A stretch of 64,000 nucleotides of DNA, taken from Nitrospirota bacterium (lineage in GTDB: Bacteria > Nitrospirota > UBA9217). The stretch is taken from the NCBI GenBank assembly GCA_035623825.1, contig DASPSR010000060.1:13954-77953 (forward strand), written 5' to 3'. Position numbers and translations under genes: made by a program. Under the pieces are notes generated by a model. It was not told where the DNA came from. It made no database searches and saw nothing but the letters and a program-made list of their open reading frames with translations. Positions 19,675 through 62,413 of the stretch are shown piece by piece (within the stretch, counting starts at the first letter, position 1; each line of letters begins with the position of its first letter).

Positions 19675-19710
19675 TGGTAGCGGGGAGAGGTTTGACCTCT
19701 GGCCTTCGGG
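19675..19710 (-). repeat. Degenerate 3' half of initiator tRNA-Met (att-like remnant 1)
   Basis: Minus strand CCCGAAGGCCAGAGGTCAAACCTCTCCCCGCTACCA: T-stem AGAGG/CCTCT, acceptor strand CCCCGCT, ACCA end. Confidence 0.8.
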
Positions 19711-19864
19711 CTTTCAATACGACGGTCGCATAAATACAGGCAAACTTCGGAACAATGGCTTTTCCTGACCGATAGAAGTGTTGGACAATCCTGTTCCGAC
19801 ACCATGTCGCGTGCTGAATGTCTCTTCTCCTGCCCACCCTCGGCGATGTTTTTTCGAAGGCAAG

Positions 19865-20275
19865 TCAGACACTGTCAGTTGGTTCCTTCCCGGCCTTTTC
19901 ATCTCTAAGATCGGTTTTTACGCCGGGCGGCGAGTGATGAGCAACAAAGAAAACACCAAGGAATATAAAAATGGAAATGCAGGCTACTGTGAATGCGAGT
20001 GATTTCCCATGCCATAAGCCGGCAAACCAACGGCTGAACTCATCCGCAAGCACAGCCGCCTTTCCACCGAAGAGTTCCAGATCATGGACATATATTTTAG
20101 AAGTTTCAGGTGCAGTCGGATATACATATCCGCCCACTACCTCATAACCTACAGCACTCTCCGACTCATCCTCAGCTGTCAGGTAAATCAAGATGGCACT
20201 GCTCAAACCAACCAGCAAGATAATGGCGCTGATGAAGTAGAGGCGCCTTTGCAGATTTGTGTTTTCCCCTTTCAT
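19865..20275 (-). CDS. Hypothetical membrane protein (2 TM)
   Basis: Two hydrophobic segments flanking YVHDLELFGGKAAVLADEF..WHGKSLA. Confidence 0.75.
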   Translation of the reverse strand: MKGENTNLQRRLYFISAIILLVGLSSAILIYLTAEDESESAVGYEVVGGYVYPTAPETSKIYVHDLELFGGKAAVLADEFSRWFAGLWHGKSLAFTVACISIFIFLGVFFVAHHSPPGVKTDLRDEKAGKEPTDSV

Positions 20276-20370
20276 GGCGTGCCTGTGTTATCCTCCACCA
20301 TTCTCAGATGTGACCCGCGCGTCCAGATCACCTATTCTTATTCCATCCCGTGGAAGGAATGTATATTTTT

Positions 20371-20463
20371 ATTATGATATAAAATAATCAAGATTACAAC
20401 TGGAATTTAACCTCAAAGACGGCGGTGTATCAAGCGCACATAGCCTTCAAATGACCTTCAGGT
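20371..20463. repeat. ~90-bp repeat copy A, ending in the TGACCTTC core
   Basis: Aligns by eye with 62302-62401 (ATCAAGATTA.AAC, AGCGCACATA..CTTCAA, TGACCTTC.GGT). Confidence 0.7.
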
Positions 20464-20585
20464 ACGCTTGCAACTATCTTGAAGCTCTAGCCCAATCGCC
20501 ATCCGACCGAATTTCGTAATAATTTCCCGCTCGAGACCCCTTTTTGATATAATGCCACCCATCTAAAGGCAACGGAGGTAGGCTC

Positions 20586-20771
20586 ATGGCTGTTACCGCA
20601 AAAATTGAAGGGAACAAGCTTATTATTACAGCTGATCTCGAGACTCCGACACCAAGCGCATCAGGGAAAACAATGGTCGTGGCAAGCACACGGGGGAACA
20701 AAGAGACGGATGTAATGATAAACGGGAAACCTCTTATTATCGGTTTGAATGCTTACATTAGGAAAAATTAG
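20586..20771 (+). CDS. Small conserved hypothetical protein
   Basis: 61 aa with PSASGKTMVVASTRGN motif; SD GGAGG. Confidence 0.75.
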   Translation: MAVTAKIEGNKLIITADLETPTPSASGKTMVVASTRGNKETDVMINGKPLIIGLNAYIRKN

Positions 20772-20857
20772 CTGATTTTCAAAACATCATAAAATTATCG
20801 AAGGGCGGATTACTCTCAATAGACTATAGTTGCCGGGACGGCACATCATTTTAGGGG

Positions 20858-21415
20858 ATGTTACATGTGGGACTTCTTGTGAAGATATATTTCATAGTTT
20901 CATTACTCATCCTTTCCTCCTCATCTGCTAACGTCGTAGATGCCAAGGACCTTACACTTAACAATGCACCTACTCAGGTCTATTTCTCTCCCAAAGGTGG
21001 ATGCACGGAAGCTATCGTAGACGCTCTGAACCATGCAAAATCCGAAATCCTCGTTCAGGCCTATTCATTCACATCCAAAGATATCGCAAAAGCCCTTCTC
21101 GAAGCCCACAAGAGAGGCGTTCATATTGAAATCATCCTCGATAGATCCAATCGGTCAAAGAATTATTCAGCGGGGGACTTTGCCGCTCATATGGGGATAT
21201 CGACTTATATTGACTCAGCCCACGCCATCGCTCACAATAAAATCATCGTCATTGATAAGAAAACGGTCATTACGGGAAGTTTCAATTTCACGAAGGCTGC
21301 TGAAAACAATAACGCCGAGAACTTGCTGATCATCTCCTCGACTGATCTGGCAAAGTATTATATCCAGAATTGGGAAACGCACAAAGAGCATAGCGTGGCG
21401 TATATGGGGCGGTAG
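20858..21415 (+). CDS. Phospholipase D-family (Nuc-like) secreted endonuclease
   Basis: VYFSPKGG, QAYSFT, single HNKxxxxD, TGSFNFT, NNAEN. Confidence 0.9.
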   Translation: MLHVGLLVKIYFIVSLLILSSSSANVVDAKDLTLNNAPTQVYFSPKGGCTEAIVDALNHAKSEILVQAYSFTSKDIAKALLEAHKRGVHIEIILDRSNRSKNYSAGDFAAHMGISTYIDSAHAIAHNKIIVIDKKTVITGSFNFTKAAENNNAENLLIISSTDLAKYYIQNWETHKEHSVAYMGR

Positions 21416-21476
21416 TCGAGGATCCTTATAAGCTCGCTTCCGGGTACAGACGCCATCCTATGTATACAGGCAAGAT

Positions 21477-21617
21477 TTAAGAAGATCTGCGGTCTATCCA
21501 ATATCTCCTATCTTTTCCGCTTCTGCGATCAGTCCCCTTGTAGTCTGAATCACGTTTTTGCCTTCGATCTTCGCTTGACCTTCTGCTACGCACAGACCTG
21601 CGTTTTCTTTTTCCCAT
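21477..21617 (-). CDS. 46-aa Arg-rich DRR-repeat microprotein (below ORF-track cutoff)
   Basis: MGKRKRRSVRSRRSSEDRRQKRDSDYKGTDRRSGKDRRYWIDRRSS; SD GAGG. Confidence 0.7.
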   Translation of the reverse strand: MGKRKRRSVRSRRSSEDRRQKRDSDYKGTDRRSGKDRRYWIDRRSS

Positions 21618-21776
21618 AAACCCTCTTTGACACCTTGAGGCCGTTATAATTCACTCATAGACTCCATTCATAACTGCATGATACCACGAAAGTCCCCGCC
21701 GCTCGTAAGGTCAAAAACGCCCACTTCGCGCTGGTCAGGCTGCCCGTTAGGCGATCGGCGGGAAGCCACAGATGGA

Positions 21777-22427
21777 TCATAGGCGCTTGCGCAGTATTAT
21801 ATGGCAAGCGGAACGGCCGCCGGCGATGTGGTTCACGCATTCGTAGCCCAACGCCGGCATATTGATGCCATCAAACAGATGTTCACCGGCACCGAGCAGG
21901 ACTGGCGAAATTACGAAATGCAGTTCGTCAATAAGTGCGGCGCGCAAATATTGTCGAATCGTAGACACGCCTCCACCAAGTCGGATGTCGCGGCCGCCTG
22001 CCGCATCCCTCGCCTGCTTCAGAGCGGCGTGGATACCTTCGGTGACGAAACGGAACTCCGTGCCGCCCGCCATCTTGATCGATGCTCGTGGGTGGTGAGT
22101 CAGCACGAAAACGGGAGTGTGATACGGCGGTTCGTCACCCCACCAGCCTTTCCAGCTGTCGTCCGGCCAGGGGCCACGCACCGGACCGAACATGTTCCGC
22201 CCGAGAATCCACGAGCCGATCCCGACGAAGCCTTCCTCCGCCATATCGTCATCTACGCCCGTTTCGCCGCCTTCATTGCCGTGCATCCGCTGCCAGGTGC
22301 GCGTATGGAAGAACCAATCAAACAACGCCAGGCCGCCGACTCCGAGCGGATTCTGGAGGTCCTGGTTCGGCCCGGCACCGTATCCATCGATTGAGATTGA
22401 GAAGCTGTGCACGCGTAGTTTCGACAT
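21777..22427 (-). CDS. Dihydrofolate reductase / RibD C-terminal family protein
   Basis: SISIDGY, LGRNMF, PVFVLTH, GGGVST, IDEL..SPVLLG. Confidence 0.9.
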   Translation of the reverse strand: MSKLRVHSFSISIDGYGAGPNQDLQNPLGVGGLALFDWFFHTRTWQRMHGNEGGETGVDDDMAEEGFVGIGSWILGRNMFGPVRGPWPDDSWKGWWGDEPPYHTPVFVLTHHPRASIKMAGGTEFRFVTEGIHAALKQARDAAGGRDIRLGGGVSTIRQYLRAALIDELHFVISPVLLGAGEHLFDGINMPALGYECVNHIAGGRSACHIILRKRL

Positions 22428-22532
22428 GCCCTTCCCCTCCGATCTCGGCTTGGGGACTTAAGCGTTGCACGGTCGCCGTCGAACAGGATATTTATTCACT
22501 TCCCACCTTACTGCAAATTCCTGATCACTTGC

Positions 22533-23186
22533 CTACTGCTTTTTGAACGCAATATCCGCAAAGTAGCTCTCCGCCGATGTCCCGGTGTGCTGGGAATTGA
22601 TCTGAAGCCGCATGCCGCTTGCCGGGGGAGGTTCCTCGCCAAAGAAATTCTTGAAATCATCATATACGTTCCGGGTCTCCGTAACCCACGTCCCCGTGCC
22701 GGCAGCGCCTGATCGCACGACTACCACATGGACGTGCATGAAAGGAACGGGCGTCGTGTCCTTCGTTAGACCCTGTGGTGCGCTCGTGGACCAGATGTAG
22801 ACGATAGACTTAGTTTTGGTGAACGCGATGAAGAGCTGAGCGGCTTGGTCATCAGTCTTCGATTTTCTGAAATCCCCTCCCTCTGGCAGCTTGGTTACCT
22901 TCCACTTCCAGGTGAGCACCGGAAACTGTTTGAGGTCCACGTTGATCTCTTTTTGGAGGGAGAAAGACGTGTTTGCGCTACGGAACCGGACGGCCGAGAT
23001 GTCGCCATCCTTGACGACAGCGAAATCCGCCTTGCCGTATTTTTCCTTGAGCTGCCACCCGGCGGGAACGCCGCCAGCATCGACTCCGCGCGAAAAATCC
23101 GCGATCACTACGCTGTTTTCAGCCCAAACCGGTCTGACAAAAAACAGGACGGCTACCAACAAGATTTTCGATATACGTGTGAGCAC
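22533..23186 (-). CDS. DUF3047 family exported protein
   Basis: Signal peptide, LTWKWKV, DDQAAQL, IVYIW, WVTETRN. Confidence 0.82.
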   Translation of the reverse strand: MLTRISKILLVAVLFFVRPVWAENSVVIADFSRGVDAGGVPAGWQLKEKYGKADFAVVKDGDISAVRFRSANTSFSLQKEINVDLKQFPVLTWKWKVTKLPEGGDFRKSKTDDQAAQLFIAFTKTKSIVYIWSTSAPQGLTKDTTPVPFMHVHVVVVRSGAAGTGTWVTETRNVYDDFKNFFGEEPPPASGMRLQINSQHTGTSAESYFADIAFKKQ

Positions 23187-23540
23187 AGATCACCTCCATA
23201 TAAAAGAAAATCCCACATGTTGCGCTGTTAGTTGCTGTATAAAATAAAACGGATGCGGTTTCCACTCCCGCATCTATTGTTGACTGAATCTCTCCTAACA
23301 TCTTCAACGTCTCGTTATTCTAAAACCGTTGACATCCATTCCGCTCTAACGAACAGCTGACGTAGTCAGGGTCTATGAAGAGAGGGGTATTTCGGACTAA
23401 ATGATTAGAATATAGCAAATATCAAGAAGGAGTGCCGATAATTTAAGGCTGAGTAGTGCAGAAAGTTGCAACCAATAAACTCAAAATCCGACAGGAAACT
23501 ATACGTAATAGATGAAAATGCGTATCGACGGCAGGCCATC

Positions 23541-24473
23541 TTAATTCAAATATTTCTTGGGATTCACAGGCACTCCGTTCAATCGTACTTCATAATGGAG
23601 ATGCGGTCCAGTGCTCGACCCGGTATCGCCCACATAGGATATGACGTCCCCTCGTTTGACCCGCTGCCCCACTTTCACGTTGAGCCTGGAGTTGTGTCCG
23701 AAAACGGTCTTGATTCCGTACCCATGGCTGATTTCAACCATATTGCCGTATCCGGGGCTGAAACCGGCTTTGAGCACAACACCGTCGGCCGGCGCTACGA
23801 CCGGCGTTCCTGTCTGTGCTGCGATATCTAAGCCTTCATGGAACGTGAGTATGCCGCTGAACGGAGAGGTACGTTTGCCGAAAGGAGATGTGACCCAGCC
23901 CCGGACAGGCCATACTGAAGGTGTAGAGGCATAAAGCGAGCGCTTGTCTTCAAAGTATTCGATCAGCGTTTGAAGGCTGGTTTCCTCCTTTGAAGCAGCG
24001 CCCTTCAACTCAGACAGCTGGTTATGCATTTCCTTGAGCGCTTCATCCTGCTTCTTTTTGCCCAGATGGGCAAGGTTCTGAAGCCTTGTTTCCTCGGGGC
24101 CTCCTATGCCGATTACCTGACTGGCCCGGTCCCGGGGACCGAGACTCACGACACGGCGAAGCTTGGTGTCAAGGTCGCGCAGAAGGAACATCTGCCGCTT
24201 GTAATCCATGAGATTGAGCGCAAAGCCCTGGACCTGTGCTTTTTGCTGCATCAACTCTTCTCGGACGGAACGAAGTTCCATGACTTTATCTTTGACGTCG
24301 TTGTATTCATAGAAAAGATACAGAGAAAGCAATGTCAAGGCTACTATAGAGAAGAGGACGGTTTTAAGCACCGGTTTAGATATGCTCATCGTTCGGACCC
24401 TTTGATTCGGTCCTGGAAGGAACATGAAAGTATAATATTCTTTTCTGTTGAGCCTGCTATATTTTGTTGACAT
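23541..24473 (-). CDS. M23 family metallopeptidase with TM anchor and coiled coil
   Basis: HEGLD and GPHLHYEV motifs; start uncertain (24473 or 24503). Confidence 0.92.
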   Translation of the reverse strand: MSTKYSRLNRKEYYTFMFLPGPNQRVRTMSISKPVLKTVLFSIVALTLLSLYLFYEYNDVKDKVMELRSVREELMQQKAQVQGFALNLMDYKRQMFLLRDLDTKLRRVVSLGPRDRASQVIGIGGPEETRLQNLAHLGKKKQDEALKEMHNQLSELKGAASKEETSLQTLIEYFEDKRSLYASTPSVWPVRGWVTSPFGKRTSPFSGILTFHEGLDIAAQTGTPVVAPADGVVLKAGFSPGYGNMVEISHGYGIKTVFGHNSRLNVKVGQRVKRGDVISYVGDTGSSTGPHLHYEVRLNGVPVNPKKYLN

Positions 24474-24918
24474 AACCGTACCCTGGGAAAAAATCAGCGA
24501 CAATCAATAGCTGGGAGGTGTCAGGATGCCGCCTCGACTGCTCATTGAGTCCCAGACAGTCTTGTTTTTCCCCGCACAACAGATCTCAAGGGAACACTTC
24601 ACTAATCCACCCATTCTTGAACATTCGGGGACGTATATCTTTTCGGACACATTATTCAAATTCTTTAATAACTTATATCGCTATACTAAGTCTTAAGGAT
24701 TACTGATGAGAGAAGGTCGATAGGGCGGCTGGAAAGGCTCTATTTTCACTGACATTTAATACTTACACGGGGACGGCAATCGCCCGACATTTGCTTTTAC
24801 AACAATAAATTACATAATATGCGCTCTGCATGTTCCGAGATGACAGTCTTTGAACCTGCGCACTCAAGAGCATGTGAGAGAGAGTGCTTCTATGACCGAA
24901 ATTATCCATCATTCTTGC

Positions 24919-25647
24919 CTATGGGCATTTCTCTTTCATTTCTTCGTCCCTACTAAGCAAGGCCAGCAATAACAAAGCTCCGGTCCACAGACAGAAAAAA
25001 GCTGCCCGTTGTCTCAACCCGCTGGCCTTGCCTATAATCCCTAAATATTTCGGCCATGGATGCGATTTGGCTACAAGGGCAAGCGGTCCGGTAGTCGCAA
25101 TAATGGCGCCTACCTTGTGGATCTTCGTGGTTTTTGCCATCAACACCACTAGCCCCGCTGTGATCGCGGCAACGACGGATCCTGTGAAAAACAAGAACAA
25201 CCCGACATCATGTAATGCCTGTTGACGGATAACATCAACGTCAATATTTTGCAGTATAATTCCACCTGGTATCGTTTCTTTGAAGGAGACCAAGAGGAGT
25301 AGCCCGGACACTGAAACGCCGAGAATCATCGATGTGATCTGGCCGAGGGGAGTTCTTCCGAATTCACAATGTTTCGCAAATGAGATGCCGATGCAGGCTA
25401 GCGACATGGCGGACAGTAAAATGGAGGCCGTGATCCAATTGGAATGGGGGGCATACGAGGCATATGTACTGATGTGATCGCGCGTCCAGTTCAGCTCGTG
25501 CGAACCCAAGTGACCGACTATCATCGTGACCGGCGCGAGTAAAAGGGCCAGCCATGAAATGATTAAGACGACATGAAGACGCATGACTCGCTTCAAGAGC
25601 GATTGTGCTATTTGATTATCATGATCATCGAGTTTCATGGCATGCAA
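24919..25647 (-). CDS. DUF998-like multi-TM membrane protein
   Basis: W..DHISTYA, six hydrophobic segments, GLRQRA near C-terminus. Confidence 0.65.
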   Translation of the reverse strand: MHAMKLDDHDNQIAQSLLKRVMRLHVVLIISWLALLLAPVTMIVGHLGSHELNWTRDHISTYASYAPHSNWITASILLSAMSLACIGISFAKHCEFGRTPLGQITSMILGVSVSGLLLLVSFKETIPGGIILQNIDVDVIRQQALHDVGLFLFFTGSVVAAITAGLVVLMAKTTKIHKVGAIIATTGPLALVAKSHPWPKYLGIIGKASGLRQRAAFFCLWTGALLLLALLSRDEEMKEKCP

Positions 25648-25688
25648 CGAGCATTGGTTTCATAAGCTTGGACAAAAGATGGAATCTG

Positions 25689-26483
25689 TCATTTTGTTGC
25701 GCGATGCTTAAAAAACGTTATTGTCTCATTTGCTACGATATCCCGCTGGTTATCTATGGGCAACATGTGATAGCAGTCATCGAGAAGCACCATGCGCACC
25801 TCGTGAGCTCCTATGTGATTGCGCACATATAGCGCGTTTTTTTCACTGGCGAGGTCATCCTCCCGTGAGTGGAGAATGAGAGCCGGCGTCAGCACTGCAG
25901 GCACAATTTTCTTCGTTGCCCTGATCAGTCGGTATAATTCACGCATGCATGAGCCAGGAACGCTTTCGTGAGCTATAGAGCCGTGACGCATGCCCTCGAC
26001 GATCCGGGTTCGAAGAGCTTGATTCTTGATCCCATACGGTTCCCGTTCCTTGAATGCATAGATGTGGTGCGCCGGGGTAGTGTAAATAAGGGGCAACAGA
26101 AATTTATACCACGGAAGACCCCATCCATCGTAGGAGAGCGTTGTCGAGATCAATGAGATTGCAGAAACTCCATCTTCGTATTCGGCTGAGAGGCAGAGTG
26201 CCAATAGCGCACCCATGCAGAGGCCGGCCACGGAAACGGTTGCATGCGTTCGCTTCAATTCTTCAAACGCTTCGCGAACGGTCCGGTACCAATCCTGCCA
26301 TCTGGCTCGCTTCAGATCCTTGAGTGTCTTCCCGTGGCCTGCCAGACAAGGCCCCTTCACAGTGAACCCCGCCCGGTGAAGTTGCCTGGCCAGGTATTTC
26401 ATCTCGAAGGGGCTGCCGGACAGACCATGAATCAGGAGAACGGCGTCGTCTCCGCCCCTCATCTCTATTTTATGCTCACTCAT
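25689..26483 (-). CDS. Alpha/beta hydrolase, carboxylesterase-like
   Basis: LIHGLSGSP, GHG, GLCMG nucleophile elbow (Cys in place of Ser), HSREDD, CYHM. Confidence 0.85.
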   Translation of the reverse strand: MSEHKIEMRGGDDAVLLIHGLSGSPFEMKYLARQLHRAGFTVKGPCLAGHGKTLKDLKRARWQDWYRTVREAFEELKRTHATVSVAGLCMGALLALCLSAEYEDGVSAISLISTTLSYDGWGLPWYKFLLPLIYTTPAHHIYAFKEREPYGIKNQALRTRIVEGMRHGSIAHESVPGSCMRELYRLIRATKKIVPAVLTPALILHSREDDLASEKNALYVRNHIGAHEVRMVLLDDCYHMLPIDNQRDIVANETITFFKHRATK

Positions 26484-26893
26484 GCTTCCCCACAATTAGC
26501 ACCGTAACCGTACGGCCAAATGCGAATGAAATCGATATGACATTTCTAATGGGCAGGCCCGTCCCGGACCTACCCGGAACATAATCAAGGTTGCATTCTT
26601 CTTACGTGTCTGCCGGCTGCCAATTGGCAACCGATTTTACAACAGATTATCAAATGTGTAAAGAGTTTGTAGGCGAATAATGGTCTCACTGCAGCTAACA
26701 TAAATAGCAGCGGCTGCGCTTGCACGAGCGAAGTGTCACGCATGGACGGAGGGAACTGCCTAAAAAACATTATTATGGCATAAGCTCAAGGCGCACCAAG
26801 CAACCTCGGCCTCGAATACGACCACATGACAACCCGCATTCTCTCGTCCCTTTCTATCCAACATTAATTTTAGTCTCTGTCTTTAAATACCCG

Positions 26894-27490
26894 CTAGAGG
26901 AACAGGTCGAAATGTATCCTCTCTCCGGTCTCCACATTCGTGACGCCGATATACATCTTCATGGTGCCTTCTCTAAATAACTTTCTTATAATAAAATTAC
27001 CGGCATCTTCTTCATTTTCTTTAATTTTAAAGAACATTACCCCCTGGTAACTCTCCTGGGGGGTCAGCGCGGTCTCTTGCAGAGCCAGACTCGAGAAATA
27101 AGCATTGACCTGCCGGCCGGTCTTGGCCGATATCCGTGAGTGCAACTCTTTGGCCACCTCAACAACCGTCTCGACGGGCATTGGATCAATTGCCTCATTG
27201 CCCTTCAAGAGCATAACATCGGAAGGTTTGATAATGTACCGACCTTTGCCGTGATTAGAAAAGATAATATTGACCGGCAGAATCTTCACTTTTAACAGGT
27301 CAGCCCCGAAATACGTCACGACCCTTTCGCGATCTGTGATCCCATCGACAGCAGCAGTGACATCGTCTCTCGTCAGAGATCTGGGATACAGGTCAGCATT
27401 TCGAAGCGGGATCTGGACGACCGTATACTCGGTGGCACACCCTGTGAGACCTAAAAAGGAGATCATCACAAGTATGACGAGTCTACGCAT
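26894..27490 (-). CDS. Hypothetical lipoprotein
   Basis: Lipobox LTGC. Confidence 0.75.
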   Translation of the reverse strand: MRRLVILVMISFLGLTGCATEYTVVQIPLRNADLYPRSLTRDDVTAAVDGITDRERVVTYFGADLLKVKILPVNIIFSNHGKGRYIIKPSDVMLLKGNEAIDPMPVETVVEVAKELHSRISAKTGRQVNAYFSSLALQETALTPQESYQGVMFFKIKENEEDAGNFIIRKLFREGTMKMYIGVTNVETGERIHFDLFL

Positions 27491-27746
27491 ACTGCTTACC
27501 TTCCTTTAATTACGCATTGTTTTTTACACGCCACTATTTTAATTTTAGCATAAAAGAGACATCACTAGGGTTTATTGGGGTATTGAAAGATATGATACGT
27601 TGCATGCGGGAAAAACCAGACAAACCTGTTGGCTGTTGTGAAAGGATCGACCGAATTTCGCCCGTATAAGTGCGGCTACACTTCGTAGGAAACAATCAAT
27701 GCCCCTGAGCATCCTGTTCTGCTGCTTGCAGATGACTCATTTATGA

Positions 27747-28538: not shown

Positions 28539-28711
28539 TTGCCATCTCGAGAAGTTCAAAATAAATTATACTGCTTGAGCGTTGCCATCCTTAAGCGAAG
28601 TTTTTGACGTCGCCAGCACTCGCAACTGCAAGTTCTGCCGGAGGTACTTCGCTTCACGCATGCATCTGAAAGACGCTTTTTGCTCCGCTTGAATTAATCG
28701 AACGGAATGGC

Positions 28712-37389: not shown

Positions 37390-37397
37390 CAGAGTAT

Positions 37398-50679: not shown

Positions 50680-50702
50680 CACACAGAAATAAATTGAGTA
50701 TC

Positions 50703-52985: not shown

Positions 52986-52994
52986 GATTTGTTC

Positions 52995-53027: not shown

Positions 53028-53214
53028 AAGTTCTCAGCATGAAGTGTAGAGCAGAGAAATAGACTTAGGATGCGCTGATATCATTCCTAGGCATATCTAA
53101 CGAAAAAGAATTGAAATCCATCCCTGCTTAGATTAAAATTTCAGAGGTTTGATCTGCAGAAACCATAATTGTGTTTTGACTGGCTGTAAACAATACTCGT
53201 CAGGGGCTAATCTC

Positions 53215-53862: not shown

Positions 53863-54074
53863 TAAGGTCTCTCCCTAAGATTATGAACCCTACAGTAAAA
53901 TATGTTGCGGAGAATTGGCTCTCTCAGTATTAACGACAACAACATCCCGAAATAGAATTCGGAAATAACTTAAAGCTGCGAATTGCACCTCCTAACTGGG
54001 TTGAACTTCACGCTACCCGCGTCACTTCACCGCTGGCTAATACGTTCATTGGAGTTAGCGAAATCGAACAGGAC

Positions 54075-54452
54075 TTACTTCTTTTCCAGCTGGATGGCTA
54101 TTCCTTTGACTTCAGTACACGTGTAAGAGAAGAAATTGTAAATTGGTATGAACCCGTATAGGCTATTGGTCACTGTAACATTAACCAAAGCGTCGCCCCC
54201 TGACTTTGCGAGAGCATTATCCACTGCCTTTGAAAATGTTGCATCGCCCCATGGAACTATTGCCAAAAGAAAGTAGCGGCAAGCCTCGCCTTCTGTTGGC
54301 CCCAGTTCTTTGTATGACTGTCCGTTTTTCAACACCGCCGCAGGATCAGCCGAGGTCCGTGTAACAACCCCGAGAGTACCAACCGATGTACAGCTGGATA
54401 AAGTTACTGCCATCAACAACGTCACCATCAATACCAGGTTACTTCTCTTCAT
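54075..54452 (-). CDS. TRL-like small lipoprotein
   Basis: Lipobox LSSC; EGEAC, GGDALVNV, CTEVKG. Confidence 0.7.
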   Translation of the reverse strand: MKRSNLVLMVTLLMAVTLSSCTSVGTLGVVTRTSADPAAVLKNGQSYKELGPTEGEACRYFLLAIVPWGDATFSKAVDNALAKSGGDALVNVTVTNSLYGFIPIYNFFSYTCTEVKGIAIQLEKK

Positions 54453-54699
54453 ACGCCTTCCCTCCCATCTATTGTATTTTGCTGTAACCCTCTGACGGCG
54501 GCGCTAAGAACTATATAATCAAAATATAACAGGGGTTAGGAATAATTTTCATCAATAAATAGGGTATTTTCAGGGTATCACATTAAATTACAGTATATAA
54601 CAGGCATAGAAAATCAATACCCTGAGATGAAACATAAAGTTTACATTTTTCTGATCCCCTTTCATCTGCCTGCATTCTCTATTCTGTTGCCTGAACATG

Positions 54700-57600
54700 T
54701 TAACCAGTTTTTCGTTTTCTAAAGCGTTCACTTAGACTCTCCATAAGAACGTAAAATACTGGTACAAACGGGATAGCCAGAAGCGTTGAAGAGAGCATTC
54801 CTCCGAATACGACTGTTCCGATTGCCCTCTGGCTTGCAGAGCCGGCTCCAAAAGCTACTATGAGCGGCACTACTCCGATTATGAATGCAAACGAGGTCAT
54901 GACAATGGGACGAAAACGACGTCGGGTTGCCTCTATGGCTGATTCGGCAATCGACCTCCCTTCTTTATGTAAATCCCGTGCAAACTCCACTATTAAGATG
55001 GCGTTTTTGCTTGAAAGGGCTATCATCAACACAAGGCCAACCTGCGTATAGAGGTTGTTGTCATATCCCCGCAAGATAAGTGCCAGTAGGACTCCGGTGA
55101 GCGCCATTGGAACAACCAGTATGACTGCAGCGGGTGACGTCCAGCTTTCATACAAGGCCGCCAGCACCAAGTATACCATGATGATGGAAAGGGCATAAAC
55201 GAAGTAGGCCTGGTTACCGACCTTTTTTTCCTGGAAACTGGAGGACGTCCAGTCGTAGGCCATGCCCGCAGGCAATCTTTGTGCGGCGATTTGCTCCATC
55301 TGTCTGAGGGCCTGACCTGAGCTGAACCCGGGGGCCGCGGAGCCGAAAATTGCCGCCGCGGGATAGAGATTGTAGCGTGTTATCAATTCGGACCCAAACA
55401 CCGTCTTCACATCGAGCAAGGCGCCCAAGGGGACCATGTCGCCACCGACATTGCGGACATGCAGGTTCTTAATGTCCTCGGGCCGGAGGCGGTAGCGGTC
55501 ATCGGCCTGGACGTATACTTGATATACCTGGTTGTATTTATTGAACAGGTTTACAAACGAGGAGCCCAGATATGATTGGAGAGTTCCGAATACATCCGCG
55601 GTGGACACCTGAAAAGCTTCTGTTTTCGTTCTGTCTATATTCAGGTAGAGCTGCGGGCTTCCGACGCTGAATGTAGTTTGAAGACCCCGCAAGCCCGCTT
55701 GAGAATTCCCCGCCTGGACGAGTTCGTATGTAGCGCCCTTGAGCTGATTCAGACCCAGGCTGCCCCGGTCTTCCACCATCATCTGGAAACCGCCTGTCTG
55801 CCCCAGTCCCCGGATCGGTGGAGGAATAACCGCAAACGCCAGCGCCTCCTCGAGACCCGAGAGCTCACGGTTCATGTGTGAGATGATAACGTCCTGGTTC
55901 AAAGCGGTGCCGCGCACGCTCCAATCCTTGAAAGCGAAGAACGTCGACGAAATATTGGAGACGTTGGCGAAGTCCAGGACCGAGAAGCCGCCTATGGTTA
56001 CCCAGGAGGCTACTCCAGGGGTCTTTTTTAAAATGTCGTTGACCTTGTAAGCTACCCGCTGCAACCTTGGCTGCGATGAACCGGGAGGCAGAATGGTCAC
56101 CAAAATGGCATAACCCTGGTCCTCGGTGGGGAGAAATCCTGTCGGCCTGCTCAAAAAAACCAAAAACGATGTGGTGACGATAACCGCAAAAACGATTGCA
56201 AACAGGCCAGAACGTCTCACCATCCGGGCGACGACACCTATATAGAAATCGGTCATCGCCTGAAAGGCCCTGTTGAACCCGCGGTAAAACCAGTTTGGCT
56301 CTTTTTTTTGCGGCCTTAACCATAATGCGCACTGCGCCGGCTTTAATGTGAGCGCGTTTATCGCGCTGATGACAGTAGTGGCGGCTATCACAAGCGCGAA
56401 CTGGCGAAAGATCTGTCCGGTGAGACCCGGGAGAAATGAAGCAGGCAGGAAGACCGAAACAAGGGCCAGGGTAATTCCCATAACAGGCCCCGTCAGTTCC
56501 TGCATTGCTTTTATGGCAGCATCTTTCGGTGTAAGCCCTCGTTCTATGTAATAAGAGCTGTTTTCCACGATAATAATCGCGTCATCCACCACAATGCCTA
56601 TGACCAGGACCAGCGCGAACAGGGTCATAAGGTTTATCGTGAAACCGAGCGCATCTATTGCGATAAATGCGCCGAAGATGGTGACCGGGACGGTAGTGGC
56701 CGGAACCAGCATGCCCCTGAAGCTTTGAAGAAAGAGAATGATCACTATGAGCACAAGAATGCCGGCTATAATCAAGGTTTCATAGACCTTGGATATGGCC
56801 TCCCTGACAAAAAGGGTGGTGTCGTACGGGATGGAATATTTCAGGCCCTCGGGAAAAGTCTTGCTCATGTCCGCCATCGCCTTATAAACGCTGTTGGCTA
56901 CTTCAATGGCATTCGCATCCGGCAGGGAGAACACTAGGAGCAATGCAGAAGTATGGCCACTAGCCAGGGCAAAATTGGCGAAGTTCTGCCGGCTCAGCTC
57001 CACCTTCGCTACATCGCGCAGGCGCACGATCTGCGGAGACGGACCGGTAGCCGTCTTTATAACGATATTCTCAAACTGTTTTTCACTGGACAGCCTGCCA
57101 AGGGTGGTTATCGTGAGCTGGGAAGGCTGATTCTCCGGCACCGGCGGAACGCCCAATTGACCGGCGGCAACCTCGACGTTCTGCCCCTGTATGGCGGCTA
57201 CGACATCGGATGCCTTGAGGCCGAAGTTCTGAAGCCTGCTCGGGTCAAGCCATACCCTAATGCTGTAAGGGCCGGCTCCGAAGACCCTCACCTGGCCCAT
57301 ACCCGGCAGGCGCGCAAGAGGATTTTGCAGATTTATTATGCCGTAGTTGGACAGGAATGTCGCATCATAACGGTCATCGTCGGAGTAAAGGCTTAACACC
57401 AGGAGGATATTGGGAGAGACTTTCTTTACGGTAACGCCCTGCTGCTGAGCGCCTCCGGGTAGCTGGGACAGAGAGGTGTTTACAAGGTTTTGCACTAGCG
57501 CTATCGATTTGTCCAGGTCTGTCCCGATATCGAAGGTAATCGTAAGAGTATAGGACCCGTCGCTACCGCTGCTGGACGACATGTAGATGGCCCTTTCCAC

Positions 57601-57816
57601 GCCGTTTACGGCTTGTTCAATCGGCGTCGCGATAGTGTCCGCCACAACTTGGGCGCTTGCTCCCGGGTAGCGGGATGAAATCTGTATTGTCGGCGGGACG
57701 ATCTGAGGATATTGGGCCACTGGAAGTTGCAAGAGGAATAAAACACCAATGATTACGGTGACTATCGCGATGACATTCGCAAAGATCGGCCTCTCGATAA
57801 AATATTTTGAGATCAT
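54700..57816 (-). CDS. RND efflux permease (HAE1 family)
   Basis: FIERPIFANV, IGIVVDDAI, KNAILIVEFA, RFRPIVMTS. Confidence 0.96.
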   Translation of the reverse strand: MISKYFIERPIFANVIAIVTVIIGVLFLLQLPVAQYPQIVPPTIQISSRYPGASAQVVADTIATPIEQAVNGVERAIYMSSSSGSDGSYTLTITFDIGTDLDKSIALVQNLVNTSLSQLPGGAQQQGVTVKKVSPNILLVLSLYSDDDRYDATFLSNYGIINLQNPLARLPGMGQVRVFGAGPYSIRVWLDPSRLQNFGLKASDVVAAIQGQNVEVAAGQLGVPPVPENQPSQLTITTLGRLSSEKQFENIVIKTATGPSPQIVRLRDVAKVELSRQNFANFALASGHTSALLLVFSLPDANAIEVANSVYKAMADMSKTFPEGLKYSIPYDTTLFVREAISKVYETLIIAGILVLIVIILFLQSFRGMLVPATTVPVTIFGAFIAIDALGFTINLMTLFALVLVIGIVVDDAIIIVENSSYYIERGLTPKDAAIKAMQELTGPVMGITLALVSVFLPASFLPGLTGQIFRQFALVIAATTVISAINALTLKPAQCALWLRPQKKEPNWFYRGFNRAFQAMTDFYIGVVARMVRRSGLFAIVFAVIVTTSFLVFLSRPTGFLPTEDQGYAILVTILPPGSSQPRLQRVAYKVNDILKKTPGVASWVTIGGFSVLDFANVSNISSTFFAFKDWSVRGTALNQDVIISHMNRELSGLEEALAFAVIPPPIRGLGQTGGFQMMVEDRGSLGLNQLKGATYELVQAGNSQAGLRGLQTTFSVGSPQLYLNIDRTKTEAFQVSTADVFGTLQSYLGSSFVNLFNKYNQVYQVYVQADDRYRLRPEDIKNLHVRNVGGDMVPLGALLDVKTVFGSELITRYNLYPAAAIFGSAAPGFSSGQALRQMEQIAAQRLPAGMAYDWTSSSFQEKKVGNQAYFVYALSIIMVYLVLAALYESWTSPAAVILVVPMALTGVLLALILRGYDNNLYTQVGLVLMIALSSKNAILIVEFARDLHKEGRSIAESAIEATRRRFRPIVMTSFAFIIGVVPLIVAFGAGSASQRAIGTVVFGGMLSSTLLAIPFVPVFYVLMESLSERFRKRKTG

Positions 57817-59006
57817 GGGCTGCCCCTCACTTCTCCGCCGGATTGAGGCGGCGCTGCGATTGACAGGAAACTCTTCCGCTCGGGGGTAACCTGCCGTCCG
57901 GGGGCCGCTTTCAGCAAGCCTTCAACAACGATCCATTCATCTCCGGTAAGGCCCTCGGCAATGGCGCGCACGTTTTCGCTCACTACCGGGCCGGGCTTTA
58001 TATTGCGACGCTCTACGATATTCTTCTCATTGACGACCAGCAAATACGTACCCTGCTGGTCATCACTCACTGCCATGGCGGGGAGGACGAAGAGGTCCTT
58101 CTTATCGATCGGCACGCGCACCCGTGCATACAAGCCCGGTATGATTTTCCCCTCTGCGTTTGGGAAGATCCCCCGCATCAGCAGGGTACCGGTAGTAGAT
58201 GTCAGGCTGATCGATGCAAAGTCCAGACGACCGGTGTGAGGATATCCGTCTTCATCGGTTACGCCTGCTAAGACCGGCCATTGGCCGGCATTGCTCTTCC
58301 CTGGCATCCAGCGCGTAATTTTCGTGAGACGGGCGAGATCAGCATCGCTGATATTGAAATATACGTAAATAGGGTCCATCTGGCTTAATTGGGCAAGGTT
58401 GCTGTTCGACGATGAAGATCCTACCAGGTTCCCGGGGTCCTGAAGTCTTCGATCGATTCTGCCGTAGAAAGGAGCAGTTACTCGTGTGTAGTCCAGATTC
58501 AGCTTGGCAAGGTCCCGGGCCGCTATGGCATTCTTCAGATTGGCCTCCGCAGTATCCCGCTGATATCGCCAGTTGTCCACGTCGGATTGATCGGCAGCGT
58601 TCTCAGACAAGAGATTCGAGTAGCGGTCGAACTGCCCTCCGGTGTAGGCGAGCTGCGCCTTGTAGAGAGCAATTTGCGCTTCCGCCTGATCAAGTGCGTC
58701 TTGATAAGTGTTTTGTTGTATGAGAAAGAGCAGTTGGCCCTTTTTTACCATCTGCCCGTCCTGGAAGAACACTTTATCCAGATAGCCGGACACCCTGGCC
58801 GTCAGTTGCACTGTATTTATGGCCTGAGTATTGCCAGTTGCCTCCAGATAATCGGTCACCGTCTGTTTTATTGGCTGGGTTACGGTGACCTTCGGCGGAG
58901 GCGGAGGCGCACTTGCATCCTTTTTCCCGCATGCAGGCAAAAGAATAAAAAAGATCAGAATCGTTGCACAGGATGCAATCATTTTAATTGATTGTCTCAT
59001 AGGCAC
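57813..59006 (-). CDS. RND periplasmic adaptor (membrane fusion protein)
   Basis: LPAC lipobox, ARVSGYL, LDYTRVTAP, TTGTL. Confidence 0.94.
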   Translation of the reverse strand: MPMRQSIKMIASCATILIFFILLPACGKKDASAPPPPPKVTVTQPIKQTVTDYLEATGNTQAINTVQLTARVSGYLDKVFFQDGQMVKKGQLLFLIQQNTYQDALDQAEAQIALYKAQLAYTGGQFDRYSNLLSENAADQSDVDNWRYQRDTAEANLKNAIAARDLAKLNLDYTRVTAPFYGRIDRRLQDPGNLVGSSSSNSNLAQLSQMDPIYVYFNISDADLARLTKITRWMPGKSNAGQWPVLAGVTDEDGYPHTGRLDFASISLTSTTGTLLMRGIFPNAEGKIIPGLYARVRVPIDKKDLFVLPAMAVSDDQQGTYLLVVNEKNIVERRNIKPGPVVSENVRAIAEGLTGDEWIVVEGLLKAAPGRQVTPERKSFLSIAAPPQSGGEVRGSP

Positions 59007-59008
59007 TC

Positions 59009-60592
59009 CTACCAGTCCGGAAGCCGAACGGCCGGTGAAGGTTTCGCATCAACCGGCGGATTATATGACGCCGGCGCCAGCAAGCCGCCCCAGTTGGTTC
59101 GTCCTTTCATTTCCTTCGTTATGGCCTGTGATACCAGGTCCTTGCCGTCGCGTATCTCCCAGCCGCCGCCAATCGCCCTGTAAACTCCTACGAGCCCTAA
59201 AGATATGTTGCCCAAGGTAGAAGCCAGATTGTCCTGTGCGGTCAAAAGGGACTGCTGAGCCGTCAATACAGTGGTGAAATCCTTAATGCCCGCACGATAC
59301 TGCTTGACTGCCAGATCCAGTGCATTTTTGGCGGCCTGAGTGCTTTTAGCCAGGTAATCGGCGCGTTCCTGAGACTTGAGAAAGGCCGACAGATTATCCT
59401 CAACATCCTGTTGCGCGGTCAGGACGGTATTCTGGTAAGTGAGGAGCAACTCCTGGAATCTTGCATCCTGCAGGCGGACATTGTTGGTGATCTGGCCGTA
59501 ATTGAAAATATTCCATGAGAAAGAGGGGCCGATCTGGTAAAAACGGTTCTCCCACCGAAAGATCTTGCCAAGGCTCGAATTCCCGGCATTGTTTGAGAGA
59601 AAGCCGAACACCCCGTTTAGGGAGAACGCGGGATAAAGGTCGGCTTTGGCCGCGCCGATCTGGGCCGATTGGGCAACAGCTTGGTATTCCGCACTGCGGA
59701 CATCGGGACGACGGCGAAGCAGATCTGTGGGAATACCCACGACTACCTCGCGAGGTGATGTGGGGATGTCCGAATCGCCTTTAAGAATGTCTGCTAGGTC
59801 GTTCGGCGCTATGCCAAGCAACACGCAAAGCGCATCTTTTTGCTGCCTCAACTGGATCTCAAGGGAAGGAATGGAAGCCTGGGTATCATTGAGTTGTGAC
59901 GTGGCCTGTTCCACATCCAGCAGGGTGACGGTACCGAATTTCAATCGAACTTCGGCGATCCTTAGGCTCTCTTGCTGGGTTTCGACATTCTGATGGGCAA
60001 TGAATATACGTTTTTCGAGAGTCCTGATATTGATATATGAACTGGCTACACTGGCTGTAAGACTCACGAGGGCGTTGTCGTAATCAGCGGTCGTCGCAAG
60101 CCATGCGGCGCCGGCGGATTGAATCCCCCGCCTGAACTTTCCCCAGAAGTCCAATTCCCAATTGGCGGCCAGCTGAACCTGATCCTGGGTAAATAAAGCA
60201 GAAGGGATAGCTGAAGGAGAAGAGGCGCTGGTTCGAATTCGCTGTAAAGAACCGCCAACCTGCTGGGTCTGGGGGAAAAAATCTCCAATGGCAATACCTA
60301 GCTGCGCCCTTGCCTCCAGCACACGGACGCCTGCAATCTGAAGTGAAAGGTTTTGGGTGTATGCCAGGTCGATGAGCCTGTCCAAAATCGGGTCGTTAAA
60401 GTTCTTCCACCAGTAGCGGTAGTCCGCTGCCTCGCTCTTGACACGATTATCTCCGGCATCCATCCAGCTCTGCGAAACCAAAACTTCCGGTCGGTGATAG
60501 TCGGGGCCGACCATACAGCCGGATATTATTAAACCCAGCGCCGAGGAAATGACATAAAGTAATGGTTTGAGATGAACCGGACTCTCTGTCAT
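59009..60592 (-). CDS. RND outer-membrane factor lipoprotein (NodT/OprM-like)
   Basis: GCMVGPDY, WELDFWG, LLRRRPDV, YRAIGGGW. Confidence 0.94.
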   Translation of the reverse strand: MTESPVHLKPLLYVISSALGLIISGCMVGPDYHRPEVLVSQSWMDAGDNRVKSEAADYRYWWKNFNDPILDRLIDLAYTQNLSLQIAGVRVLEARAQLGIAIGDFFPQTQQVGGSLQRIRTSASSPSAIPSALFTQDQVQLAANWELDFWGKFRRGIQSAGAAWLATTADYDNALVSLTASVASSYINIRTLEKRIFIAHQNVETQQESLRIAEVRLKFGTVTLLDVEQATSQLNDTQASIPSLEIQLRQQKDALCVLLGIAPNDLADILKGDSDIPTSPREVVVGIPTDLLRRRPDVRSAEYQAVAQSAQIGAAKADLYPAFSLNGVFGFLSNNAGNSSLGKIFRWENRFYQIGPSFSWNIFNYGQITNNVRLQDARFQELLLTYQNTVLTAQQDVEDNLSAFLKSQERADYLAKSTQAAKNALDLAVKQYRAGIKDFTTVLTAQQSLLTAQDNLASTLGNISLGLVGVYRAIGGGWEIRDGKDLVSQAITKEMKGRTNWGGLLAPASYNPPVDAKPSPAVRLPDW

Positions 60593-60796
60593 TACGTTAG
60601 CTCCAGATGGTTGCTGGCTGCCTTCGCTATTTCAAGTATCAGATGCAATTCGTTGCGTGTTTGCGAGATCTTTATCCCGCCGTAAATGCCTATCTAAATT
60701 ATACTTTATAAAATCTCCGCCTGGCAAGAGTGTCAATCCGATTAAAGTACTATTGTCATGGTGATCGCGTTGATCACTTTTTGTAATACTTAAAGC

Positions 60797-62113
60797 TCAT
60801 ACGAACTTCACGCATGTGCGATATCGCAGAGCCCGCAAATATGCCACATTCAAAGGTAAGGTCCACCACAATCCCACGGGAGAGCGGGCTAAACGCCGAG
60901 ATAGGCTCCGCAAAGAGTAGAACCGTAGATTGGCATACCGATAGCCTTCTAGCAAGGTCTTCGGGCTCATATGCCGAGGTCGAAAAACGACATCTTCCCG
61001 ACCATTGTACTTACTCCAATCGCGTGTTAAAATCCGACCTTCTGCATCCAAACGCTGATAAAGTCGCGTCCCAGGATACGGTGTCAATATATTAAAAGTC
61101 GCATTTTGCACCCCGACCTCTTCAAGAAAGTCCAGCGTTGCGCCAAAGATTGTATCATTGTCATTATCAAAACCAAAGACTATTCCCGCCTGTACTGCAA
61201 TGCCGTAAGAATGGATACGCTCAATTATTCTCGCATATTCTTCCACGCGGTTGAAGCTCTTGTGAATACCGTCCATGCTGGCCTGAGAAATCGATTCCAG
61301 GCCGATGAACAGCTGTTTGCAGCCGCTCCGCGCGGCCCACTCCAGGAATTCTTCATCGCCGCCCGCCTGAATGCTGGCCTGGCTGCTCCACCATTTCTTG
61401 TAGGGCGCAATTGCCCGAAATAAAGCTATGGCATATTCCCGGTCATTTGCCAGATTATCATCCCAAAAAATGATCACCTTCCCCGGAAAAGATGCATATT
61501 CCGTTGCCGCCGCAGTCACAGAGCGCTTCCGAACCTTGCGCCAGTACATCATGGGCAGCACGCAGAAATCGCATCCATGGACACAGCCTCGCGTGGCAAA
61601 CAGCCGCCCGGCCGTATAATCGCGCCGATGAAATAATTCTTTCCTGGCCATTGGTGCATTCTCCAAAGAAGGCGGAACGCTTGAGCCATAACGGGTGTTA
61701 TAATGCCCCTGTTCGAAGTCTCGCAAGAATCGAGGCCATTGTGTTTCCGCCTCCCCAACGAAAATTACATCCGCGTGCGCCTGCGCCTCATCCGGTAATA
61801 AAGTTACATGCGGCCCTCCAAGCACGACGGGAATGCCCCGCCTCCGAAATTCGGCGCTAAGCGCATAGACATGCAGAGCGCTCGGAGTGTGAAAAGTAAT
61901 CCCGACTAGATCCACTCGCAATTTGACATCAACCGGCTTAACCGCTTCATCAATATGGATAACCTCCCAATGCGGCGGCACAAAGGCAGCGAGATAGGGC
62001 ATAGTGATCTGCTGAAAATTCAGCACACGAGACCGCCGTATCCTCCGGATTTCGGGAGAGGAAGAAGTAATTAGGAGAAGCCTTGGTCGAACCAATAAAT
62101 CATGATTAGCCAT
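60797..62113 (-). CDS. B12-binding domain radical SAM protein
   Basis: VVLGGPH, RGCVHGCDFC, DDN, IGLES, TPYPGT. Confidence 0.92.
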   Translation of the reverse strand: MANHDLLVRPRLLLITSSSPEIRRIRRSRVLNFQQITMPYLAAFVPPHWEVIHIDEAVKPVDVKLRVDLVGITFHTPSALHVYALSAEFRRRGIPVVLGGPHVTLLPDEAQAHADVIFVGEAETQWPRFLRDFEQGHYNTRYGSSVPPSLENAPMARKELFHRRDYTAGRLFATRGCVHGCDFCVLPMMYWRKVRKRSVTAAATEYASFPGKVIIFWDDNLANDREYAIALFRAIAPYKKWWSSQASIQAGGDEEFLEWAARSGCKQLFIGLESISQASMDGIHKSFNRVEEYARIIERIHSYGIAVQAGIVFGFDNDNDTIFGATLDFLEEVGVQNATFNILTPYPGTRLYQRLDAEGRILTRDWSKYNGREDVVFRPRHMSPKTLLEGYRYANLRFYSLRSLSRRLARSPVGLWWTLPLNVAYLRALRYRTCVKFV

Positions 62114-62301
62114 TTTTGCTTGAGCTTTTCGGGCAACCTAATAGTATTTTTGACAATCGTGAAAACTATATTCCTGGTCAACGATGTTGTCAATCGACGG
62201 AGAGATTATTTTTGCGGGGTATCAGCTACTTAATTCCGGATGAAATGTGGATATTGTGGAAGGTCGCAAAAATCAATGTTTCAGGATGTAGGTGCGTTTT
62301 T

Positions 62302-62413
62302 ATTGTGGTTTATAATTATCAAGATTATAACCAGAAATTAAATCTCAAGAGCCGCATATTGGCGTGTTTAGAGCGCACATATTCTTCAATGACCTTCGGG
62401 TTATTGACCCGAA
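62302..62413 (-). repeat. ~90-bp repeat copy B fused to tRNA-Met anticodon-arm remnant 4
   Basis: Minus strand TTCGGG-TCAATAA-CCCGAAGGTCA, followed by the arm shared with 20371-20463. Confidence 0.75.

Follow-up and report, generated by a model that had tools for sequence, protein, structure and literature searches.

Scattered 3' halves of the initiator tRNA gene in a flexible genomic region of a Nitrospirota bacterium from peat metagenomes are probable integration scars

A stretch of 64,000 nucleotides from a metagenome-assembled genome (MAG) of a Nitrospirota bacterium, called the window below, was analysed to its full length. An initial annotation had noticed six degenerate pieces of one tRNA-like sequence in it and had proposed an integron-like cassette system anchored at a tRNA gene. 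Three of the six pieces, at about 19.7, 37.8 and 53.0 kb (positions 19675, 37820 and 52995), were true 3' halves of the initiator tRNA-Met gene (tRNA-fMet), which began at the anticodon loop and extended through the terminator of the gene itself. The pieces at 20451 and 62390 were copies of a second repeat, and the piece at 53881 was unsupported. We observed that the two repeats shared one core, that the sites were co-oriented, that synteny broke beside the outermost site, that like arrays occurred in other genomes, and that the arms of both repeats stood on a single core in one of these. The sites were probably att-type scars of tyrosine-recombinase integration in a persistent flexible region associated with the tRNA gene.

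The window corresponded to positions 13954-77953 of contig C12 of the MAG (G000). This contig had 77,953 bases, so window base 64000 was the contig end. The assembly comprised 67 contigs and was 89.65% complete, and the window stretch was contained in peat metagenome runs. Open reading frames (ORFs) were mechanical greedy picks, and 63 of those in the window were scanned against Pfam. Several of the comparison genomes were incomplete; G051 was near-closed, in 2 contigs. The genus of G000 comprised four genomes, and G045 and G051 belonged to another genus of the same family. The nhmmer models were built from copies in the MAG, which match them by construction, and the independent BLAST query was the intact initiator tRNA of a relative (L007).

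The tRNA halves, named type A, comprised the tRNA from the anticodon loop to CCA and a flank of about 45 nt (AAACTTATCAAGGGGTTACAGC-loop-GCTGTAGCCCC-T-run). With the L007 tRNA, BLAST matched window positions 19674-19710 (C12:33627-33663; 92%, E 2e-7), 37817-37866 (C12:51770-51819; 81%, E 3e-6) and 52995-53038 (C12:66948-66991; 82%, E 6e-5). Read on the minus strand, the three sites gave ...GACCGTCGTATTGAAAGCCCGAAGGCCAGAGGTCAAACCTCTCCCCGCTACCA, ...TCGGGTTCGTAACCCGAAGGTCAGTGGTTCATTCAATCCCCGCCACC and ...GAACTTGAAGGTCAGAGGTTCAAAACCTCTAACGCTACCG, respectively. The outermost site (19630..19717, minus strand) adjoined conserved genes. It showed a degenerate left arm GACCGTCGTA, the loop TTGAAAG, CCCGAAGGCC, the T-arm, the acceptor, CCA and a decayed terminator flank; nhmmer gave E 4e-16, but this copy was in the seed set of the model. 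The site at 37792..37858 (minus strand) was degenerate, CATTCGGG-TTCGTAA-CCCGAAGGTCAGTGGTTCATTCAATCCCCGCCACC, and kept a palindromic left arm (nhmmer E 1e-3). In the case of 52947..53036 (minus strand), the tRNA 3' half was followed by a native-type terminator flank (AAAGGGTTACAGCTTATGCTGTCACCCC) and the left arm was absent. A search of the MAG with RF00005 gave 38 full tRNAs and one partial tRNA, and the partial one was the 53-kb site (17.9 bits). In addition to the three window copies on C12, the MAG carried six type A copies on C14 and one on C59.

The source of these halves was the initiator tRNA-Met, as had been proposed. A pattern made from the best copy had matches in 7 of 31 genomes searched, and in G011, G021, G004, G026 and G027 the match was an intact tRNA-Met with CGCGGGG...GGGCTCATAACCC. 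The composite consensus of the family was identical to the initiator tRNA 3' half of G011 and G021 at 38 of 38 bases. The type A flank was the native terminator of the gene. In G051 the intact tRNA-fMet was followed by AACTTATCAAGGGGTTACAGCGTACGCTGTAACCCC, the 3' flank of the fragments was the same as that of this intact gene (AACTTATCAAGGGGTTACAGC...GCTGTAACCCC), and a type A profile made from copies of the MAG only matched it with E 3e-16. The MAG had two tRNA-Met(CAT) genes (C41 and C66), and both were rejected as the source, with matching words of only 7-8 nt.

The other two supported sites resembled the tRNA only in the core CC(C/T)GAAGGTCA and were copies of a separate repeat of about 230 nt, named type B. 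BLAST with the L007 tRNA matched 62390 over 23 nt only (E 0.73) and did not match 20451. The flank of 62390 searched by blastn matched C2 (E 4e-21), C14 (E 2e-17) and C11 (E 1e-13). Type B started with AATGACCTTCGGG-N7-CCCGAAGGTCATT, followed by a conserved arm, and the copies were 70-75% alike. The copy at 62186..62419 (minus strand), upstream of a B12-binding radical SAM gene, had the palindromic core TACTTTCGGG-TCAATAA-CCCGAAGGTCA and a conserved arm of about 200 nt. The copy at 20268..20488 (minus strand) had the core right arm CCTGAAGGTCA without the left arm, and then the conserved arm with TTGTAA-17-CATAAT. Six full copies were found in the MAG, two on C12 (window 20.4 and 62.4 kb) and one each on C14, C2, C11 and C59, with partial copies on C27 (two), C59, C60 and C31. 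Among 41 genomes, full copies were confined to the MAG; pieces were present in G001 and G002, and weak short matches in G008 and G020. Rfam gave no match in the window at the gathering score and none at E up to 5 in 62050-62450, and the RNA fold of the 62.4-kb repeat was no better than that of shuffles (z -0.5).

The distal part of the type B arm, about 55 nt (CCTGAAACATTGATTTTTGCGACCTT..ATATC.ACATTTCAT; window copy 62186-62240), also occurred alone, without the core, at other intergenic places (G000:C31:8438-8497, G000:C60:132-186 and G001:C5:71466-71525). It may be a separate small repeat or a regulatory motif.

The shared core was a 29-bp palindrome of 11-7-11 copied from the anticodon arm. 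At G051:C2:150343-150535, a single core carried a type A fragment (E 2e-8) and, on the opposite strand, a type B arm (E 2e-15). Therefore, the two repeats were two arms of one kind of site. Conservation was determined per position for 35 sites, taken from G000, G001 and G051, of which one row was mis-anchored. For the right arm it was 94%, a figure biased by the fact that the sites were found via this arm. Likeness to the tRNA grew from left to right, and the 3' part of the loop, ATAA, was kept in 23-29 of the 35 sites. The consensus left arm GACCTTCGGG was the exact reverse complement of the right arm and differed from the GCTCGTCGGG of the tRNA. At least four of five stem pairs were possible in 23 of the 35. 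A minority of copies had the full tRNA loop CTCATAA or GCATAA with an unrelated left side (C14:3159 in the MAG; G051:C2:37013 and 182961). Integration within tRNA genes has reportedly been ordered into a scheme of sublocations by Williams in 2002. The layout of our sites is that expected of a tyrosine-recombinase attR, which would consist of the element core arm, the overlap and the displaced 3' half of the host tRNA. In PMC9897764, tRNA gene fragments are described as attR sites.

The flexible region occupied 19527..64000, extended to the contig end and contained about 44 mostly unrelated ORFs, with a G+C content of 0.42-0.62 per kb. The synteny break lay within 19491..19630. Homology to G001, G002, G003 and G012 stopped at about 19526, 35 nt upstream of the start codon of a PaaK-like gene (window 18193-19491) that was 88-89% identical in G001-G003. 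Past this gene, the four relatives shared the same DNA, which in G001 was a Liv-type ABC transporter (two ATPases, a permease and two binding proteins). The roughly 100 nt between 19526 and the type A flank had no match in the stretches of the relatives compared, and the outermost fragment lay about 100-180 bp from the homology end. Because the homology of the relatives stopped there and no tRNA was present, the outermost fragment marks, in these alignments, a real synteny break that is not at the place where relatives keep tRNA-fMet. The island was absent from these relatives, with its breakpoint near the outermost fragment, and genes were shuffled one at a time among congeners. As a separate observation, the cluster of PaaK, indolepyruvate-oxidoreductase and Liv-ABC genes (window 13170-19491; C58:17132-24698) was contiguous in G001 and broken in the MAG. 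The MAG assembly yielded neither the Liv ATPase nor the permease genes, and the binding-protein genes were on C58.

Similar arrays were present in other genomes. Among 61 genomes, the pattern mostly matched 1-3 times, at the gene itself; G000 had 6 matches, G001 10, G045 16 and G051 12. The arrays of the three other genomes, from two genera, consisted of 10-16 mostly co-oriented fragments over 200-600 kb. G045 had 14 on the plus and 2 on the minus strand, and G051 had 9 and 3, respectively. In the case of G001, contig C5 (376 kb) carried 10 pattern hits at 133-158,551, from the first bases of the contig on and all 10 on the plus strand, and nhmmer added an eleventh, more degenerate copy at 219,782. 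In the MAG, co-orientation was 6 of 6 on C14 and 5 of 5 on C12, on the minus strand. Partial tRNAs were thus scattered in a flexible island common to G000, G001, G045 and G051.

For the history of these sites, we infer a recombinase origin, an identity of the recombinase and an order of events as follows. A tyrosine-recombinase-type integrative system would have used the anticodon arm of tRNA-fMet as its core, with the left arm GACCTTCGGG, a 7-nt spacer and the right arm CCCGAAGGTC. Each integration would have displaced about 95 nt of the gene, its 3' part with everything between anticodon loop and terminator, and this would have given type A. The element-side arm beside the same core would have given type B. 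Repeated integration, decay of the elements and loss of the integrase, followed by deletions and rearrangements, would have left a large, integrase-poor flexible region. Within it, single genes with their upstream DNA would have been gained, lost and reordered.

Several results weighed against this history. No tRNA-fMet was present at the boundary spot in G001, G002, G003 and G012, and the boundary in the MAG lay inside the PaaK/Liv-ABC cluster. The 5' half of the loop varied in nearly every copy. The co-oriented B...A pairs in C12 were unlike the prediction from a single integration of a B(rc)-core-A attP. Degeneracy did not grow with distance, as the initial annotation had expected it to do: identity to the 46-nt reference was 35 at 19.7 kb, 35 at 37.8 kb and 37 at 53.0 kb. 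The G001 copies had 34-43 identities, also with no distance trend except that the farthest copy was the lowest. Not one of the genus's four genomes had an intact tRNA-fMet assembled. In G051, the 11 fragments (C2, 35-628 kb) were on another contig than the intact gene (C1:66303-66379, minus strand), and the stretches of C1 inspected downstream of this gene, at 1-30 kb and 56-66 kb, contained no fragment. In addition, no integrase was found in the window or beside the sites of the MAG that were examined.

The search for the intact gene in the MAG gave the following results. ARAGORN found no tRNA in the window. In the assembly, which was 89.65% complete and in which the window ran to a contig end, no intact tRNA-fMet was among the 39 tRNA genes, which included the two tRNA-Met(CAT). 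A 5' half of the initiator tRNA was also absent from the assembly at up to 6 mismatches in 30 nt. The best match to the upstream neighbour of the G011 tRNA-fMet, C48:69016-69762, was considered as the native locus and rejected, with no tRNA beside it. In G051, a type-B-like core with its arm lay 6 kb downstream of the intact gene. No integrase was encoded in the 6-kb segment between them, whose genes were for a PF04185 phosphoesterase, a GIY-YIG protein and a PIG-L protein. The same PF04185 family, at G051:C1:62238-64253, had two paralogues in the window (41856-42992, minus strand, and 43872-45995, plus strand).

The reading as integration scars had close parallels among tRNA-targeting islands, including tandem or accreted ones, and integrase-less remnants of the type of cis-mobilizable elements (CIMEs). 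Like these, the sites were directly repeated 3' parts of a tRNA gene that started in the anticodon loop. An inverted-repeat arm of element type stood to the left of many copies, the sites were co-oriented with foreign-looking DNA between them, and synteny broke at the outermost copy. However, the target here was an initiator tRNA, and the copies numbered 10-16 rather than 2-4 and were spread over hundreds of kb. The segments examined had no integrase inside them or adjoining them, the intact gene was not adjacent in G051, and the repeat ran through the terminator. Displacement of tRNA fragments by tRNA-targeting islands in general is covered in the Islander work. The closest match was Prochlorococcus. 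Hackl et al. (bioRxiv 10.1101/2020.12.28.424599) describe persistent islands linked to tRNAs, which contain partial tRNAs and degraded integrases in scattered places and are remodelled by tycheposons, island genes that belong to no functional element, and flexible content that differs among close relatives. Both systems had flexible islands tied to tRNAs, scattered partial tRNAs and gene content differing between relatives. In contrast, our lineage is another one, known from peat metagenome MAGs, and a second, promoter-like arm repeat shares the core; tRNA-Met does not occur in the main text of the preprint (bioRxiv 10.1101/2020.12.28.424599). We saw no hallmark genes of tycheposons, although no search aimed at them was made, and the sole candidate for their recombinase, the small integrase on C20, was unlinked to any site. 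The sites were unusual in their initiator-tRNA target, in the number of copies and their spread, in having no integrase linked to them, in lying apart from the intact gene in G051, and in the presence of a second arm repeat.

We also considered whether the sites bound active modules. Each module would be bounded by cores, would carry the promoter-like arm and the arm with the tRNA half and terminator, and would be excised and re-inserted in trans by a recombinase encoded elsewhere, with the 280-aa integrase on C20 of the MAG or the host XerC/D as candidates. Such a system would be like an integron or a pdif module but without attC. We regard it as unlikely, although the shuffling of genes between G000 and G001 spoke for it. 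What the first 240 kb of G001:C5 had in common with the genome of G000 was mostly single-gene-sized blocks (0.3-2.9 kb, 72-93% identity), spread over at least 10 contigs of the latter, with one longer collinear run of about 15 kb, to C52. Eleven of 61 window proteins matched these 240 kb at E up to 1e-20, nine of them among the 44 island ORFs. The positions of the nine homologues in G001 were scrambled (189, 181, 27, 116, 172, 226, 190, 188 and 42 kb), and orientation relative to the fragment array was kept in 8 of 9. Nucleotide homology ended 0-15 bp from the stop codon in four of the nine pairs and extended about 100-300 bp upstream in three. In addition, the T-stem was uniform within each genome, AGAGG/CCTCT in G000 and GTCGG/CCGGC in G001, where the farthest copy was a hybrid. 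The modules also found support in the 0.8-kb unit at 19.6-20.5 kb, where a 136-aa ORF with no Pfam family (19865..20275, minus strand) was the sole ORF between type B and type A, and in small putative toxin-antitoxin units between sites on C14 and C59. In these two-gene units (G000:C14:69936-70726 and G000:C59:1173-1976), each between two sites of tRNA-fMet type, an UPF0175-type gene of about 100 aa stood with a gene for a 165-aa protein (no Pfam), and the two units were distantly related. They look like toxin-antitoxin pairs.

However, the spacing of the sites did not fit modules of this kind. The sites had been thought to punctuate single genes, and this was not what we found. Along the window they were 0.8, 17, 15 and 9 kb apart, with 5 sites for about 44 ORFs, and only the 0.8-kb unit was cassette-sized. 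A general repeat search of 19.5-64 kb, made without an attC model, gave the two families described above only and no attC-like repeat at gene ends. Most shuffled genes were thus not flanked by sites, and therefore the sites alone do not explain the shuffling. The spacers differed among sites, which would block most pairwise exchange by a homology-dependent recombinase. The strand bias was also not confined to the island. The earlier count of about 32 of 43 genes on the strand of the sites was close to that from our own picks (33 of 44 ORFs on the minus strand right of 19.8 kb), but it was not special, because both the bias (13 of 17 left of 19.5 kb) and the sign of the GC skew, which was one over the whole window, extended to the left of 19.5 kb. 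This bias was probably a replication-strand effect.

Present activity of the sites was checked with Logan contigs from four peat runs (X1, X4, X5 and X7). A contig of 9,098 nt from X1, possibly the source sample, covered 18973-28070 without difference. A contig from X4 spanned 19675 and 20451, one from X5 spanned 19675, and contigs from X1, X4 and X5 spanned 37820. No rearranged junction was seen at any site in these contigs, which drop rare variants, so that rare excision is invisible in them. Taken together, and with the same limit, contigs of three further samples bridged 19675, 20451 and 37820 unchanged, and the mobility that the initial annotation had suggested was not seen. In all four runs, another contig matched 19675-19710 only, with two A bases that restored a perfect T-loop. 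Its flanks were absent from the MAG where shown (X1, X4 and X7), and its depth was near that of the window. Therefore, there was at least one further copy of the fragment in these communities.

The recombinases were also considered. C12 had no PF00589 match, and the six matches of the MAG were all on other contigs. A 280-aa tyrosine recombinase was encoded at the start of C20 (C20:198-1037), with fragments on C15 and C32 and no site adjoining. Its homologue in G001 (C5:19710-20552, 66% identical) lay inside the tRNA-fMet array and had one in-frame TAG. Five of 61 genomes (G000, G001, G003, G044 and G045) contained this small integrase, whole or in pieces, and four of the five carried tRNA-fMet fragments, which spoke for action in trans. 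On the other side, the C20 query did not find it in G051, with its 12 pattern hits, or in G002, and the G001 copy adjoined an odd tRNA-Lys besides having the in-frame TAG. No recombinase can be tied to the tRNA-fMet sites. The tRNA next to the G001 recombinase (G001:C5:19552-20552, L036) was an unusual tRNA-Lys(ctt) directly upstream of it and was very unlike the chromosomal tRNA-Lys of G000. The integrases at contig starts in G003 were rejected as candidates; they adjoined tRNA-Thr, tRNA-Pro and tRNA-Ala and not tRNA-fMet. At G000:C9:108650-112014, a tRNA-Ala(ggc) (C9:111939-112014) stood with two integrase fragments (PF00589 at C9:109916 and C9:111669) and weak tRNA-fragment-like matches at C9:110206 and 108710, which looks like a separate decayed island. 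G045 had 46 PF00589 matches, compared with 11 in G051, and runs of 3-5 adjacent tyrosine recombinase genes on several contigs (C1:620-624, C1:821-824, C3:67-69, C6:422-424 and C8:536-540 kb), which presumably resemble recombinase-in-trio elements.

The sites were also compared with known module systems. Chromosomal integron arrays and clusters of attC sites lacking integron integrases (CALINs) have an attC after each cassette, and the arrays have an IntI-type integrase with attI and the Pc promoter beside them. The long run of mostly co-oriented, unrelated single genes, their reshuffling among relatives and the toxin-antitoxin pairs were similar here. However, the window had no IntI-type gene and no attC-like repeat for each gene, the sites were 0.8-17 kb apart, and the units seem to carry their own upstream regions. 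In pdif (Xer) modules of Acinetobacter plasmids, short palindromic sites with a spacer flank small gene modules. The likeness here lay in short palindromic sites of recombinase type with a central spacer and no dedicated recombinase nearby; the differences were the 7-nt spacer, the core copied from a tRNA anticodon arm and the chromosomal setting. Without per-gene sites, compatible spacers, a linked recombinase and junction variants, an integron-like cassette system was unproven. As a bolder form of the same idea, there may be a small chance that at least two genera of the family possess an 11-7-11 anticodon-arm site with interchangeable arms, which an unlinked small integrase or Xer would use in trans to reorder expression-ready single-gene modules over hundreds of kb. 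If true, such a site would be a tRNA-derived functional analogue of integron and pdif module exchange.

Another reading is that of a dispersed tRNA-derived repeat, either like a miniature inverted-repeat transposable element (MITE) or RNA-mediated, which was possibly kept as terminators (type A) and promoters (type B). The ends of the copies at the terminator T-run, which is the 3' end of the transcript, were consistent with this, as was the distribution in G051, over about 600 kb, on both strands and on another contig than the intact gene. Type B stood in either orientation to the neighbouring genes, and its downstream genes were unrelated. Of the two window copies of the TTGTAA-17-CATAAT block, a promoter scan flagged that at 20.4 kb and passed over that at 62.4 kb. 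The type A copy at 53 kb was likewise not flagged by a terminator scan. Against a MITE, alignments of type B showed a hairpin at one end only, with unconserved sequence outside, and the low likeness of the copies blurred their ends. The exact complementarity of the left arm to the right, as in a recombinase core, the two arms on one core in G051 and the strong co-orientation within contigs also argued against dispersal. We therefore hold this reading to be quite improbable.

Chance matches to a short G+C-rich motif deserve hardly any weight and were refuted for five of the six sites: although two of the six window matches to the 11-mer CCCGAAGGTCA (at most 1 mismatch) lay inside ORFs, like background, and 53881 (53860..53930, minus strand) rested on GGGTTCATAA (10 nt) like the anticodon stem/loop with no match by blastn or nhmmer, the other four were named sites, 1.06 matches were expected, none of 100 shuffles reached 6, the 21-mer T-arm matched once with 0.01 expected, and the copies were 60-90 nt long including the native terminator flank. 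The exact palindrome TGACCTTCGGG-N7-CCCGAAGGTCA had 3 loci in a species-representative genome collection, all in unrelated Solirubrobacterales/Acidimicrobiales MAGs. The probability left over by these readings belongs to histories that we have not thought of.

The five supported sites were all between picked ORFs and all on the minus strand, and in these two respects the initial annotation was accurate. It was also right about the lack of mobility genes, since no integrase, phage-structural or conjugation family was found by Pfam among the 63 ORFs. The families that were found included a PLD nuclease, RibD_C, DUF3047, an M23 peptidase, methyltransferases, a patatin, a GH25 lysozyme, the two PF04185 phosphoesterases, an RND efflux operon and the B12 radical SAM enzyme. 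A 102-aa ORF at 50703-51011 (minus strand) combined a zinc ribbon of InsA type with a zinc finger of Top1 type. It had no adjacent transposase and was the sole trace like an insertion sequence in the window.

For annotation, the scar reading would explain the seemingly random mosaic of singleton genes, and tRNA-like hits in the region would be fragments. The defined 29-bp core and the two arm sequences make recombination directly testable. The window's own part would be a fairly ordinary outcome of such a history. If the reading is true, a peat-soil lineage has flexible regions linked to tRNA-fMet that are unusually large and rich in sites, with 10-16 scars over 200-600 kb in those genomes that possess them, and no resident integrase is close by. 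The idea of persistent tRNA-anchored islands, described for Prochlorococcus, would then also apply to a soil group unrelated to it and would include the initiator tRNA.

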